DNA of 38,737 nucleotides from NCBI GenBank assembly GCA_964630375.1, contig CAZVRT010000002.1:1-38737 (forward strand), given 5' to 3'. Under the pieces are notes generated by a model. That model searched no databases. It saw only the letters and a list, made by a program, of their open reading frames with translations, and had not been told where the DNA came from. Every line of letters starts with the position of its first letter. Positions within the stretch are counted from its first letter, which is position 1. Of this stretch, positions 3,633 through 28,639 are shown piece after piece. The DNA comes from an uncultured Candidatus Saccharibacteria bacterium. Lineage in GTDB: Bacteria > Patescibacteriota > Minisyncoccia > Phycocordibacterales > JAACPR01. The position numbers and the translations under genes were made by a program.

Positions 3633-4394
3633 TTTATCTCTATAAATCAAAGAAACCAGCGCGAAACTTAAAATTAACAAAAGAAACCACGAGCCCATCT
3701 TCCCCATTGAAACCAAATTCCAGTTTTCTAATTGATTTGGGTACAACCAAATTCTCGTAAATGTTCCAATGTTCTCAGCAATCCACACGAAAAAAGAAGT
3801 CAGAACAACTGTTATAAGAAAAGGAATATTCCGTTCTTTTTTATAAACTTTGAAATAAACTTTTGTTTTGTAAAAAACTAGCAAAATATAAGCAAATAAA
3901 ATATATCTGATATCAAAATAAAAATGATGAGTGAAAAAATTTACATAAATTAAAATTGCAATAATCCAAAGATGAAAATATGCCGGAAAATTTTCATATC
4001 GAAGTTTTAGAAAAATAAAAGCTCTTGAAATATAACTTCCTATTGCTGAATAAAGAAATCCTGTAAATAAAGGTACTGTACCGATGACAAAAATTGCAGA
4101 TTTAACATCAGGATAAACCCAAGAACCAATAGAGGGATTGGTTTTAAATAATTCCATTCCTGTTGCCAAAATATGAAAAATAATAATTACTAAAAATTCC
4201 CTAGGGGTTTCCGCTTTAAATATCAGCATGCAAATTTGAAAAAGAACTGCTGAAAGAAAAATAAAATCATACCGACCTATAAAAGGAATTGTGACAATCT
4301 CAGTCAGTAAAAATATAGTTAATAAAAAAGCACCAAAATAACTCGCTCTTAAACTAGCAATAAAGAAATACCATAATTCAGTCAGAGCTTTCAT
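3612..4394 (-). CDS. Polytopic membrane protein, DUF817-like
   Basis: The ORF is open to 4550, but the Met at 4394 (MKALTELWYFF...) gives about 260 aa and removes the overlap with the divergent gene at 4495. RYDFIFLSAVLFQ...HILATGMELFKT...GSWVYPD resembles DUF817 as I remember it. Confidence 0.65.
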   Translation of the reverse strand: MKALTELWYFFIASLRASYFGAFLLTIFLLTEIVTIPFIGRYDFIFLSAVLFQICMLIFKAETPREFLVIIIFHILATGMELFKTNPSIGSWVYPDVKSAIFVIGTVPLFTGFLYSAIGSYISRAFIFLKLRYENFPAYFHLWIIAILIYVNFFTHHFYFDIRYILFAYILLVFYKTKVYFKVYKKERNIPFLITVVLTSFFVWIAENIGTFTRIWLYPNQLENWNLVSMGKMGSWFLLLILSFALVSLIYRDKLIKNPN

Positions 4395-4494: not shown

Positions 4495-4935
4495 ATGAAA
4501 ACGATTATCAGACCAGAAGAAAGGGGTTGGGATATAAGAGAGGTAAACAAAAAAGTTATTAAGCTAATGCAATTTGGCGCTCGTGTTATGAGAATGACAC
4601 GAAATATTGGTGCATTTGACTATCATTTAGTCTTTGAGCCCGAAAGAGATGTTTACGTTGTGATTTTCATGTCAATCGGGGATTGGCAAAGCGAATATAA
4701 TTTGATCATTACGGATATGATGGTCATACCAATAGAATACCGACGCAAAGGTTATGGCACTACAGCTATTTCAATTTTAGCTCATTGGTGCTCTGAAAAT
4801 GATTTCACTGAGATTGTTGCGACTCAAGTTTCTGATCCAAATTCAATCAAGTTTTGGGAGAAAAATGGTTTTGTTCGACTTCCCGAACCGAACCAGACTA
4901 GCGACTACATTCGCCAAATCTCCCCCACGATCTGA
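4495..4935 (+). CDS. GNAT-family N-acetyltransferase (small)
   Basis: 146 aa. YRRKGYGTTAI...KFWEKNGF matches the GNAT acetyl-CoA-binding motif A (R/Q-x-x-G-x-G/A) and the C-terminal beta-strand motif. Confidence 0.7.
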   Translation: MKTIIRPEERGWDIREVNKKVIKLMQFGARVMRMTRNIGAFDYHLVFEPERDVYVVIFMSIGDWQSEYNLIITDMMVIPIEYRRKGYGTTAISILAHWCSENDFTEIVATQVSDPNSIKFWEKNGFVRLPEPNQTSDYIRQISPTI

Positions 4936-12029: not shown

Positions 12030-13349
<1,320 letters not shown>

Positions 13350-26245: not shown

Positions 26246-26282
26246 TAAATAAAAACACAGACCTCGCACGAGATCTGTGTGT
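26246..26282 (-). terminator. Intrinsic terminator behind leuA (between convergent genes)
   Basis: ACACAGA (26255-26261) / TCTGTGT (26274-26280) plus inner pairs. The minus-strand reading is followed by TTTTTATTTATT. Confidence 0.6.
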
Positions 26283-26298
26283 AAACTCCAAAAAACAA

Positions 26299-27939
26299 TT
26301 AGTAATAACGATTGATTGCACTGAGTACGGCGTTTACAGAAGCAATTTGAATACTGCTATTCACACCAACTCCCCAACGTGTTTGTCCAGTAGCAAATTG
26401 AACAAGAACAAACGCTATGGCATCAGATTCAGAACCTGAGCTAAGTGAATGTTCAGATTGTTCAATAATATTGATAATTTCAATATTTGAGTTGCGCAAA
26501 CTTTGTACGAACGCATCAATTGGACCATTGCCTTCGCCAGAAATATTTTTAACATAATCGTTGCAAATAATCCCAGCTTCACACGAACAAACTCCATCAT
26601 GCTCAGTTGAATTAAAATATTTGAGACTGTATGGATTGGTAAGATTGACATATTCTTTCCAAAACATTTCTCTCAAATCTCTTGCGTCAACTTCTCGGTT
26701 GAGTGAATCAATTTTTTTTCCGGCGATTTGACCAAATTCTTTAATCAAATCTTTTGGCAGAAAAATGCCACACTCGCTTTCGAGAATGTATGCAATTCCA
26801 CCTTTGCCGGACTGACCATTTACACGAATGACTTCATTGTACTGACGTCCGATATCTTTGGGATCTATTACGAGATACGGCACATCCCAAAACTCTCTTT
26901 TGGCATTCAATCCTTTTCTGATTGCATCTTGATGAGAACCAGAAAAAGCTGTAAACACCAACTCTCCGCTATATGGATGTCTTTCGTAAACTCGCATTCC
27001 TGTACACTTTTCATAAACTTTACGAATCAACTCAAGATTAGAAAAATCCAATTTAGAATCAATTCCTTGAGTATACATGTTAAGTGCAACAGTAATGATA
27101 TCCAGATTTCCGGTCCGCTCCCCGTTTCCAAAAAGCGTTCCTTCAACTCTGTCGGCACCAGCAAGAATTCCAAGCTCAGTAGCCGCAACACCAGTTCCTC
27201 TGTCATTGTGAGTATGAATACTCACAACAATCAGATCACGCTTAGAAATACTTTTGCAAAACCATTCTATTTGATCTGCATAAATATTTGGCATCGCAAC
27301 CTCAACCGTACAAGGAAGATTTATTATCATCTTTTTGCTTGGTGTGGGATTCCATTCACAAATCACAGTTTCACAAATTTCCACAGCAAACTCAATTTCC
27401 GTAGCGGAAAAACTTTCTGGAGAATATTGCAAAATAATTTCAGTTTCACTCAAATTCTCAGAATGTTTTTTAATCCACCTAACTCCCTGAATAGCCAAAT
27501 CAACGACTTGAGATTTTGTCATTCCGAAAACAATTTCTCGTTGAGCAGGAGAAGTAGAATTGTACAAATGAACAATTGCTTTCTTTGCACCTGCGAGTGA
27601 TTCGACAGTTCTCATAATCAAATCTTCTCGAGCTTGGACAAGAACTTGAATTGTCACATCATCTGGAATCAAATTTTCTTCAATCAAAAATCGAACAAAA
27701 TCAAATTCAGTTTGTGACGCTGCCGGAAAACCGACTTCAATTTCTTTGAAACCGCACCTGACCAAAGTTTTGAAAAACTCAACTTTTTTATCAATGTCCA
27801 TCGGGACAGCCAATGCTTGGTTTCCATCTCGCAAATCAACACTACACCAAATTGGAGCTTTGGTAATTTGCTTATTTGGCCATTCACGATTATTCATTTG
27901 AATAACAGGAAACGACTTGTATTTGTTTTTTGGATTCAT
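26299..27939 (-). CDS. leuA: 2-isopropylmalate synthase, long (type 2, actinobacterial/yeast-like) form
   Basis: 546 aa with WCSVDLRDGNQA, the metal-site HTHNDRGTG, and a C-terminal LeuA dimer/regulatory domain. Confidence 0.92.
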   Translation of the reverse strand: MNPKNKYKSFPVIQMNNREWPNKQITKAPIWCSVDLRDGNQALAVPMDIDKKVEFFKTLVRCGFKEIEVGFPAASQTEFDFVRFLIEENLIPDDVTIQVLVQAREDLIMRTVESLAGAKKAIVHLYNSTSPAQREIVFGMTKSQVVDLAIQGVRWIKKHSENLSETEIILQYSPESFSATEIEFAVEICETVICEWNPTPSKKMIINLPCTVEVAMPNIYADQIEWFCKSISKRDLIVVSIHTHNDRGTGVAATELGILAGADRVEGTLFGNGERTGNLDIITVALNMYTQGIDSKLDFSNLELIRKVYEKCTGMRVYERHPYSGELVFTAFSGSHQDAIRKGLNAKREFWDVPYLVIDPKDIGRQYNEVIRVNGQSGKGGIAYILESECGIFLPKDLIKEFGQIAGKKIDSLNREVDARDLREMFWKEYVNLTNPYSLKYFNSTEHDGVCSCEAGIICNDYVKNISGEGNGPIDAFVQSLRNSNIEIINIIEQSEHSLSSGSESDAIAFVLVQFATGQTRWGVGVNSSIQIASVNAVLSAINRYY

Positions 27940-27966
27940 TTTTTATTTGGGTTTGAAAGAACAACT

Positions 27967-27996
27967 AAAAAACCAGCTCTTCTGGTGAAGAGCTGG
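27967..27996 (-). terminator. Leader terminator (candidate attenuator) 27 nt upstream of the leuA start
   Basis: On the minus strand: CCAGCTCTTC (27996-27987), loop ACCA, GAAGAGCTGG (27982-27973), then T6 (27972-27967). The 10-bp stem is perfect. Confidence 0.8.
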
Positions 27997-28021
27997 CTGG
28001 TACCTACCTACTTTAAATTAG

Positions 28022-28093
28022 TTAAACACAAGCAAAATCTCCACCTTTTTCAAGATTCAAGAGTGCCAGCAAATTTTGTGCTTGTGTATTCAT
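28022..28093 (-). CDS. Candidate Leu-rich leader peptide MNTQAQNLLALLNLEKGGDFACV
   Basis: 23-codon ATG ORF with five Leu among codons 8-14. It lies between the upstream gene's stop codon and the leader terminator. It is below the 60-aa cutoff of the supplied ORF track and was read by hand. Confidence 0.45.
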   Translation of the reverse strand: MNTQAQNLLALLNLEKGGDFACV

Positions 28094-28132
28094 TATTTTT
28101 TACAGATTAATAGATTTTGATATAAAGTCAAA

Positions 28133-28639
28133 TTAAAACTCAACTGTAATTGGGAAAGACATTGATGCGTCATTTTCTGGCATGTCAGATGGATTGTCTC
28201 GTTTGAAAATCAAGATTGCAGGACCAACAAAAGCAGATGGTGTTTGCATTTCAGCTGTGAAGTTTACAAAATCTTCTGTCATCCATTCTCCTTCAGCAGT
28301 TGCAATTCCTCCTCCCAAAATATTTCCATTCATTGCACGAAGTTCTATAGGAAATGATCCTTCAAAAAACCAGTATCCTCTCGCCTTTCCAATAATTGTA
28401 AATTCTTTTCCTGTTACAGCACCTGGATAAGGAAGCTCAACTTGAATCAAATCAGCTGAAGCATTTTCGTATGTTGGTTCAATAACCGGTTCTTGATTTT
28501 GATCAAAATCATTTGGTGAATTGTTTTCGTCTACAATCACATCATTTTGAACTTCATCTCGATTCGAATACATATAATATGAAGCTCCGATAACTACCAA
28601 AATTATGATAATAAATGTAACTTTTGCGTATGTTTTCAT
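28133..28639 (-). CDS. Secreted/membrane-anchored Gmad2 immunoglobulin-like domain protein
   Basis: 168 aa with an N-terminal TM/signal anchor. The C-terminal PYPGAVTGKEFTIIGKARGYWFFEGSFPIELR...GEWMTEDFVNF matches the Gmad2 Ig-like domain pattern. Confidence 0.8.
   Translation of the reverse strand: MKTYAKVTFIIIILVVIGASYYMYSNRDEVQNDVIVDENNSPNDFDQNQEPVIEPTYENASADLIQVELPYPGAVTGKEFTIIGKARGYWFFEGSFPIELRAMNGNILGGGIATAEGEWMTEDFVNFTAEMQTPSAFVGPAILIFKRDNPSDMPENDASMSFPITVEF

Follow-up and report, generated by a model that had tools for sequence, protein, structure and literature searches.

Attenuation of the classical type, as in leuL and trpL (the latter RF00513 in Rfam), combines a leader open reading frame (ORF) with a run of end-product codons, four RNA segments, a stop codon at which the ribosome covers segment 2, and a terminator ahead of the first biosynthetic gene, and leader-peptide systems have been reported in Proteobacteria. 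They are also reported in Actinobacteria, where Corynebacterium glutamicum possesses leader peptides before leuA, ilvB, trpE, and aroF (PMC3890552) and the LEU element is described as a pseudoknot between a Leu codon run and the Shine-Dalgarno (SD) sequence of leuA, with no obvious terminator (PMC1262725), as well as in Firmicutes, with leader peptides containing branched-chain codon runs (PMC2965389) and a Leu-rich attenuator peptide for the Staphylococcus aureus ilv-leu operon (PMC5794164). Here we examined the leuA leader in a stretch of 38,737 nucleotides (nt) from an uncultured Candidatus Saccharibacteria bacterium (contig CAZVRT010000002.1; the whole stretch is hereafter called the window), namely the 193-nt spacer, read on the minus strand, between the stop codon of the upstream gene (ending at 28133) and the leuA ATG (27939). 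This spacer is very probably a ribosome-mediated leader-peptide transcription attenuator that would sense the supply of charged tRNA-Leu, and it represents one copy of a scaffold family conserved in Patescibacteria. The elements of the leader, and the gene it is predicted to control, are the following.

28126..28131, minus strand: putative -35 box TTGACT, directly after the stop codon of the upstream gene, proposed from family conservation
28104..28109, minus strand: putative -10 box TAATCT, 16-nt spacer to the -35 box, ending 10 nt before the mini-ORF ATG
28022..28093, minus strand: leader-peptide ORF (mini-ORF), 23 codons plus stop, encoding MNTQAQNLLALLNLEKGGDFACV
28064..28088, minus strand: segment 1, core ACACAAGCA (28087..28079) plus AAAUUU (28076..28071), pairing with segment 2 and overlapping the first Leu codon
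28052..28072, minus strand: regulatory Leu codons, UUG CUG GCA CUC UUG AAU CUU, five of the seven encoding Leu (codons 8, 9, 11, 12, and 14)
28026..28045, minus strand: segment 2, the switch strand GGUGGAGAUUUUGCUUGUGU, with segment 1 or segment 3 as partner, ending at the leader stop
27984..28004, minus strand: segment 3, GGUACCAGCCAGCUCUUCACC, forming the antiterminator with segment 2 and the terminator with segment 4
27967..27996, minus strand: intrinsic terminator, composed of CCAGCUCUUC (27996..27987), the loop ACCA, GAAGAGCUGG (27982..27973, segment 4), and U6 (27972..27967)
27956..27962, minus strand: GUUCUUU box between terminator and leuA start, able to pair with segment 4
26299..27939, minus strand: leuA, the predicted regulated gene, encoding a long-form 2-isopropylmalate synthase of 546 aa, monocistronic, with a terminator of its own and then a convergent gene downstream

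The mini-ORF, its Leu codons, the hairpin, U6, and both complementarities on which the first-pass annotation had based its proposal of an attenuator were all recovered on the minus strand at the positions it had given. The terminator stem is a perfect 10-bp helix (27996..27973) that starts 25 nt past the stop codon of the mini-ORF, a UAA (28024..28022) located directly 3' of segment 2, and U6 ends 27 nt before the leuA ATG. One complementarity joins ACACAAGCA (28087..28079) to UGCUUGUGU (28034..28026), and the other joins GGUGGAGA (28045..28038) to UCUUCACC (27991..27984) by 7 Watson-Crick pairs and 1 G-U pair. The latter helix had been regarded as short and as the weakest part of the model, which turned out to be incorrect: pairing extends from GGUGGAGA through UUUUGCUUGUGU to GGUACCAGCCAGCUCUUCACC (28004..27984), in the register GGUGGAGA-U-UU-U-GCUUGUG against CAAGC-C-AG-C-UCUUCACC, with 16 of 19 positions paired at about -18 kcal/mol, giving a 2:3 helix of ~17 bp instead of 8 bp that is 94% paired across the copies in other genomes. 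The 1:2 duplex (-17.5 kcal/mol; z = -2.63, p = 0.015 versus shuffles) is likewise extended, by AAAUUU (28076..28071) against AGAUUU, and overlaps segment 2 at nt 28043..28026. It thereby uses the same segment 2 nucleotides as 2:3, the two helices being mutually exclusive, and reaches the first Leu codon.

By itself, the terminator hairpin is predicted at -16.7 kcal/mol, and the minimum free energy (MFE) fold of the whole spacer consists of 1:2 plus the terminator. As the z-score of this fold is only -1.68, support for the attenuator comes from cross-genome comparison and not from folding energy. Folding the RNA with ribosome-covered nucleotides placed at chosen sites nevertheless gave the switch expected from the 1:2 / 2:3 / 3:4 layout proposed at the outset. 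With no ribosome placed, 1:2 and the terminator are predicted; with the A-site on Leu codons 8-12 and the RNA made to nt 110, the antiterminator is the MFE structure of the nascent RNA (-18.2 kcal/mol); and with the A-site on the stop codon, segment 2 is covered and the terminator is predicted to form. Furthermore, when the ribosome was placed on the codon run and the RNA folded only to segment 3, the same long antiterminator resulted in every family member (-18 to -32 kcal/mol).

In the mechanism that we propose, transcription probably starts within a few nt of the mini-ORF ATG, and a ribosome would load on the leaderless, or nearly leaderless, RNA, translate the mini-ORF, and trail the polymerase. 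When leucine is scarce, the ribosome would stall on the Leu codons, of which 8-12 are best placed, cover segment 1, and free segment 2 (28045..28026), which could pair with segment 3 (28004..27984) once the latter is made; the resulting antiterminator of ~17 bp would hold the 5' arm of the terminator, and the polymerase would read through into leuA. When leucine is plentiful, the ribosome would reach the UAA and cover segment 2, the 3:4 hairpin with U6 would form, and transcription would stop in vivo 27 nt before leuA. If translation does not occur, 1:2 would pair and the terminator would form again. Under this attenuator model, a change of GGUGGAGA to CCUGGAGA would break 2:3 and give constitutive termination.

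The family was collected by two DNA pattern scans with one genome per species, plus extra copies in loci already collected, and chance matches were dropped after checking mini-ORF, terminator tail, and context, leaving 41 copies. Discarded as chance were many first-pattern matches that fell within long ORFs of GC-rich genomes (Aeromonas, Vicinamibacterales, and others), and two second-pattern loci (L262, L265) were discarded as plain terminators at gene ends. The 41 copies share the scaffold GGUGGAGAUUUUGCUUGUG ... ACAAGCCAGCUCUUCACC ... GAAGAGCUGG plus a U-run and come from metagenome-assembled genomes (MAGs) almost all labelled Patescibacteria, with Saccharibacteria, Paceibacterota, Parcubacteria, Taylorbacteria, Minisyncoccia, and Peribacteria as hosts and few bins labelled otherwise. 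In every copy (41/41) a start codon opens an ORF that includes a codon run and terminates at, or shortly past, segment 2. The nearest relatives (L253, L255, L001, L006, L082; LeuA 63-67% identical) carry a near-identical mini-ORF with a Leu run upstream of leuA, the leader peptides being MIRYAQNLLALLNLRKKGGDFACV in L253, MNGHGINKLNLLNLLKNGGDFACV... in L255, ...NNLLALLALRKNGGDFACV in L001, and similar in L006 and L082, and two DNA blocks, GGTGGAGATYTTGCTYGTG and ACAAGCCAGCTCTTCACC, are nearly invariant among them. A covariance model (R1), built from 39 family members with the window excluded, matches the window in full length at 27967..28049 on the minus strand (86 bits, E = 2.2e-24), which is its only real match there, and when applied to 100 leuA loci from many phyla (L001-L100) it matches Patescibacteria loci only. 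Two Staskawiczbacteria-like loci (L016, L096) possess a Leu leader with a different terminator sequence and were not detected by R1. Across the orthologs, mini-ORF, Leu run, terminator, and antiterminator are kept with compensatory changes, and it is this conservation of mini-ORF, Leu codons, and covarying stems between genomes that supports the first-pass assignment to the classical leuL/trpL type.

Pairs were counted in a MAFFT alignment of 39 leaders, with shifted registers and shuffles serving as controls. The 17 pairs of the antiterminator 2:3 are 94.3% paired versus 35-47% in shifted registers, and four of them change on both sides, a number reached by none of 500 shuffles; in the 19 copies that were not collected through the base-fixing pattern, the core 2:3 helix is 94.7% paired versus 43-61%. 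The terminator 3:4 is 92.1% paired versus 33-52% in shifted registers, and a U-A pair is replaced by C-G in 4 of the 39 leaders (5 of the 41 copies). Segment 2 is a nearly invariant block across the family, and some changes that touch its pairing are matched elsewhere. For instance, L270 and the second copy in L189 combine segment 2 GCGAAGAG with segment 3 CUCUUCGC (U-A to C-G in the core), and in L259, L267, and L268 a U to C change in segment 3 turns a G.U pair with segment 2 into G-C, with an A to G change in segment 4 to match. In L241, and likewise in L163, C13 of segment 2 is changed to U, and segments 1 and 3 each carry the matching G to A change; changes of segment 2 that are compensated in two different partners are the signature of a switch. 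Since MAFFT loses the structural register of segment 1, helix 1:2 was judged by duplex energies versus shuffles, and by this measure 15 of the 41 copies have p <= 0.05. At its 3' end, segment 1 extends as far as the codon run in 40 of the 41.

Leader geometry is conserved as well. The first codon of the run is most commonly codon 8 (nt 22; 19 copies), segment 2 starts at nt 49-61 in 38/41 copies, and the stop codon lies directly 3' of segment 2 in 17 copies, ending 24 nt after the start of segment 2 (13-46 nt in all). A -35/-10 pair scoring at least 8/12 is found in 38/41 copies, nearly all copies have TTGAC(A/T/C/G) upstream of the mini-ORF at a conserved spacing, and TAATCT is also the best -10 box in L192, L242, L258, and L200. 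Because 6-9 nt separate the end of the -10 box from the leader start codon in 31/41 copies, the leader ORF would be leaderless or nearly so, and this appears to apply to the window too, where the 5' untranslated region seems to span only ~3 nt. A leaderless leader ORF fits an SD-poor, Parcubacteria-like genome, and a core SD motif was found in only 1 of 30 long window ORFs when 25 nt upstream of the starts were inspected. Many long window ORFs display a TATAAT-like box ending ~6-10 nt before the start codon (starts for example at 28639, 20363, 36019, 29782, and 206); the upstream sequences suggest that leaderless mRNAs are common in this genome.

The identity of the codon run further corresponds to the gene that follows, as listed here for the copies with a classified gene.

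Leu run, before LeuA of the long or short form: 18 copies
Ile run (e.g. MEFRINSIIIGIIITKSNGGDLTRASF), before threonine ammonia-lyase IlvA: second copy in L180 (526 bits, cutoff 421)
Ile run, before citramalate synthase (CimA): L192 and L242 (691 and 670 bits, cutoff 450)
Ile run, before a stand-alone 186-209-aa protein that corresponds to the regulatory domain at the C-terminus of citramalate synthase: L205, L258, L259, and L260
Phe run (MNIVSRLKNFFFFFYF...), before DAHP synthase: 1 copy, in L270 (497 bits, cutoff 343)
Mixed Ile/Leu/Val run, before IlvE: L264 (381 bits, cutoff 307), and by similarity the plus-strand copy in L272

For Leu and Ile runs against gene type, the 2x2 table reads 18/0/0/7 (Fisher p = 2e-6). 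That run identity tracks the pathway favours a leader sensed by the ribosome, as an RNA sensing a ligand or protein would not predict it.

Several points weigh against the attenuator. The -10 box of the window is a weak consensus match, which the automatic scan omitted and in place of which the scoring script chose another pair. Seven Leu-type and six Ile-type copies precede unclassified genes, as does one further ambiguous copy, and many Ile-type copies have a weak helix 1:2. Since large parts of the scaffold hardly vary, covariation depends on few events; part of the conservation in the set stems from its collection, since the two search patterns fixed many columns, and the anchors of the pair table were picked to maximise pairs. 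Several copies have poor U-tracts (CUUUCGUU, UAUUGUUU), and termination strength may vary among copies. A ribosome stalled at codon 14, the last Leu, would itself cover the start of segment 2. Lastly, in folds of the full leader, equilibrium always favours the terminator, and antitermination must therefore be kinetic; a kinetic decision on read-through is usual for classical attenuators.

Among other explanations, it is conceivable, if unlikely, that leucine is sensed by stalling as proposed while the output is, wholly or partly, translation or mRNA stability controlled through pairing of the GUUCUUU box with segment 4, or Rho-type termination. Such a box occurs in 35/41 copies; it is similar to the terminator's 5' arm and able to pair with its 3' arm. 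The resulting 4:5 duplex has a median of -6.8 kcal/mol and beats shuffles in 19/35 copies, the window reaching -7.1 kcal/mol (p = 0.1). The weak U-tracts of some copies point in the same direction, as does the actinobacterial leuA proposal, in which a leader peptide acts with SD sequestration and no terminator (PMC1262725). However, the terminator of the window is canonical, with a perfect 10-bp GC-rich stem and U6, and a similar one closes leuA:

26280..26255, minus strand: intrinsic terminator closing leuA, from the terminator scan

The 3:4 helix and the U-run are furthermore conserved. Sequestration of an SD by the box was considered and rejected, as a box:SD hairpin of -3 kcal/mol or stronger is predicted in just 1 of the 14 SD-bearing copies, and window leuA has no SD (caaacccaaataaaaaATG).

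Quite improbable in our estimate is a riboswitch, T-box-like leader, or protein target, in which the real switch would sense tRNA, a metabolite, or a protein directly and the mini-ORF would be incidental. Segments 2-4 are indeed far more conserved than the N-terminus of the peptide, the constraint on the RNA is independent of reading frame, and GGUGG in segment 2 together with the CACCA loop is superficially similar to the pairing of a T-box with the tRNA end. Nonetheless, no Rfam family, including T-box (RF00230) and Leu_leader (RF00512), matched anywhere in the window at gathering score, and a permissive search of 27800..28300 (to E = 10) returned only matches at noise level, to rli38 (26 bits) and Trp_leader (16.8 bits; E = 1, gathering score 41), with neither T-box nor Leu_leader among them; a match to a T-box or other riboswitch was the outcome that the first-pass annotation had named as refuting its proposal. 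The leader is moreover only ~128 nt long, without room for a Stem I or specifier domain, and in 41/41 copies its variable part is precisely an ORF that begins with a start codon, includes 4-7 identical codons, and stops at or beyond segment 2. The association of codon run and pathway described above is predicted by neither ligand nor protein sensing, and the promoter spacing would let the RNA begin at or near the start codon.

A third explanation, very hard to reconcile with the data, holds that the mini-ORF encodes a functional trans-acting small peptide with the conserved C-terminus GGDFACV and that the RNA pairings are secondary. In its favour, 34/41 copies keep the frame giving GG(D/G)(F/L)(A/T)(C/R)(V/A), and a trans-acting attenuator leader peptide, peTrpL, is known in Sinorhizobium (PMC7298713). 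Yet segment 2 is read in frame 0 (GG(D/G)...) in those 34 copies and in frame 2 (...VENSLVS, ...LVEILSVSS) in the other 7, which places the constraint on the RNA and not on the peptide. The segment 2 variants GGUGGAGG, AGUGGAGA, GAUGGAGA, and GCGAAGAG are likewise non-synonymous while pairing is kept, in GCGAAGAG with a compensating change in segment 3, and synonymous third positions are invariant, again indicating constraint on the RNA. Conservation of GGDFACV at the peptide level was rejected on the grounds of the second frame and of these variants; in addition, no signal or other feature is recognisable in the peptides, whose N-termini vary with the target gene.

Finally, the hairpin might simply terminate the gene upstream (28133..28639), with the Leu-rich ORF a chance product of an AT-rich spacer, but this reading has a practically negligible probability and is already contradicted by the comparative data. 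In its favour, no other terminator for the upstream gene precedes the hairpin, Leu has six codons, short ORFs are common in AT-rich DNA, and the spacer z-score of -1.68 is modest. Against it, the ORF, run, and four segments are kept where LeuA is 63-67% identical and upstream neighbours differ, the upstream gene in L253 has its own terminator before the leader promoter, the R1 match has E = 2e-24, and Leu-run mini-ORFs occur in 24 of 135 unique leuA upstream regions versus 1 antisense and 0.35 in shuffles. In addition, the only promoter-like site lies upstream of the terminator, which itself sits 27 nt from the ATG, an arrangement that implies regulated read-through. As to a leaderless leuA promoter 3' of the terminator, no plausible -10/-35 pair was seen by eye in these 27 nt, and the scan lists none.

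Regarding the controlled gene itself, its identification as leuA in the first-pass annotation was borne out: the product scores 812 bits with NF002991 and 718 bits with TIGR00970 (cutoff 697), the profile of the long-form 2-isopropylmalate synthase, and possesses the Pfam architecture HMGL-like + IPMS_D2 + LeuA_dimer. Its best matches, at 63-67% identity, come from Paceibacterota, Minisyncoccia, and Saccharibacteria MAGs. An exact-protein look-up returned no contig, and as the closest relative found anywhere is 67% identical, the leaders could not be aligned nucleotide by nucleotide among close strains. The window enolase (12030..13331), by comparison, is 89% identical to that of a Parcubacteria MAG (JBEBBG010000007) in a species-level genome collection. 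This identity and the scarcity of SD motifs agree with the SD-less lineage resembling the candidate phyla radiation (CPR) that had been suspected for the host, and from the difference between enolase (89%) and LeuA (67%), leuA may have a patchy distribution in the lineage or have reached it by lateral transfer. No leuB, leuC, or leuD was found within the window, and the upstream neighbour of the leader is a Gmad2-domain gene (28133..28639, minus strand).

Within the family, some further arrangements were observed. The scaffold also occurs in bins labelled Izimaplasma (L207), Dehalococcoidales (L192), and Bdellovibrionales (L232), which may be mis-binned Patescibacteria contigs or reflect transfer. 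In the Izimaplasma-labelled bin, the leuA behind a Leu-run leader is split into 608-1057 and 1060-2274 on the plus strand (149 + 404 aa), which could represent a frameshift, a pseudogene, or an assembly error. Several contigs contain two scaffold copies (L272, L180, L187, L189, L200, L258). Those of L272 lie on opposite strands, at 4205-4369(-) and 4500-4644(+), and the minus-strand copy has a short ORF that contains Phe (MFQSGFGTGFIFHILEI) and a variant terminator that lacks the CACC element, and precedes an unclassified gene of 355 aa. Most relatives form an extra hairpin directly after the terminator, between the U-tract and a downstream A-rich run (GGUUUUGUUUUAC...GUAAGACAAAAGAAAG), for example in L173:2160-2195, L223, L232, L239, and L253:1427-1460, which would sit inside the helix of segment 4 and the box. 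The window has no such hairpin, U6 running almost straight into the GUUCUUU box.

Two groups of proteins located directly behind Ile-run leaders deserve description. The stand-alone LeuA_dimer proteins (L259:707-1267(+), L260:4662-5261(+), L258:766-1395(-), L205:374-955(-)) match only the allosteric LeuA_dimer domain (~350-518 of TIGR00977; Pfam PF08502) and, judging from this match, may be a separately made regulatory subunit or sensor. The second group comprises small proteins of 84-151 aa without a Pfam or NCBIfam match (L200:1316-1666(-), L268:5978-6331(+), L189:1858-2220(-), L187:2561-2959(+), L269:2012-2467(+), L200:2075-2329(-)), one of which follows a Leu-run leader. Two of these small proteins have the N-terminal motif AE(I/V)xxWSVxxY in common, and the genes that come next are gatC and gatA in L189 and a NifS-like cysteine desulfurase in L267 and L268.

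Taken further, the family might constitute a programmable platform, a reading that we put forward tentatively and would place just short of evenly balanced. An ancestral scaffold (segments 2-4 plus GUUCUUU box) would have been duplicated within Patescibacteria and re-aimed by exchanging only the codon run and retuning segment 1; it would work on leaderless RNA, with the ribosome loading at the nascent 5' end, and 4:5 pairing would add a second layer of control. As part of the same tentative reading, its targets would comprise leuA of both forms, ilvA, cimA, the stand-alone LeuA_dimer proteins, ilvE, DAHP synthase, and several small proteins.

Patescibacteria (CPR) represent a large share of bacterial diversity with almost no cultured members, and are regarded as poor in biosynthetic pathways and regulators. 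A conserved amino-acid-sensing attenuator would imply tight transcription-translation coupling, intrinsic termination, and probably leaderless initiation in these organisms. For annotation, the scaffold would provide a new cis-regulatory RNA family with no Rfam match and a readout, from sequence only, of the controlling amino acid, which separates LeuA from CimA paralogues and flags the small proteins and the stand-alone LeuA_dimer proteins as predicted to be isoleucine-regulated. One platform with Leu, Ile, Phe, or mixed runs would further mean that attenuator specificity can evolve by a swap of the codon cassette. As the mechanism is a textbook one, the surprise is moderate; family and lineage are apparently new as far as literature and Rfam searches reach. 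In line with the first-pass annotation, which knew of no attenuator in a CPR-like lineage, a full-text search of incomplete coverage found no description of leader-peptide attenuation in Patescibacteria, CPR, or Saccharibacteria, and "undescribed" is limited accordingly.

How, then, does this leader compare with other systems? Leu-run mini-ORFs followed by a terminator also occur upstream of long-form leuA in Treponema, Desulfobulbaceae, Anaerovoracaceae, Azospirillum, Verrucomicrobiota, and other MAGs (L053, L054, L058-L061, L065, L066, L071, L144-L154, and others). These leaders, for instance MNKTLLLLLLSGFSR in L053 and MTNANSLLLLLLVDS... in L060, each followed by a terminator, share target and logic with the window. 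We rejected them as members of the same family, as R1 finds only Patescibacteria loci, and consider them analogous, not homologous. The Firmicutes leaders are similar in that ribosome-mediated attenuation by branched-chain runs operates outside Proteobacteria. They differ in phylum, sequence, SD-dependent ORFs, and multi-gene operons that are also under CodY or T-box control, and no scaffold shared between operons is reported for them. Closer in their targets are the Actinobacteria, with Leu-run leaders before long-form leuA and aromatic or branched-chain runs before aroF and ilvB, the set of targets (leuA, DAHP synthase, ilv) being the same. In contrast to the actinobacterial LEU element, however, the window possesses a canonical terminator, no SD, and a different conserved sequence, and does not have the features that define a LEU element.

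The family is also reminiscent of the T-box in having a conserved terminator/antiterminator platform whose specificity is reset by a small codon element, here the codon run of an ORF and in the T-box a single specifier codon. The T-box, though, binds uncharged tRNA directly and is untranslated with a Stem I of ~100 nt, whereas the window leader measures ~128 nt from its putative start to the U-run and is mostly ORF. The closest likeness is to enterobacterial leuL and trpL, with which the window shares the codon-run ORF, the 1:2/2:3/3:4 segments, the placement of the stop, and the terminator before the gene. No homology to these leaders is detectable, the window ORF has no SD and is apparently leaderless, and segment 1 lies mostly upstream of the codon run, whereas it lies downstream in leuL and trpL. 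Most distinctive with regard to these, one scaffold is common to leaders for different amino acids, and its host is Patescibacteria.

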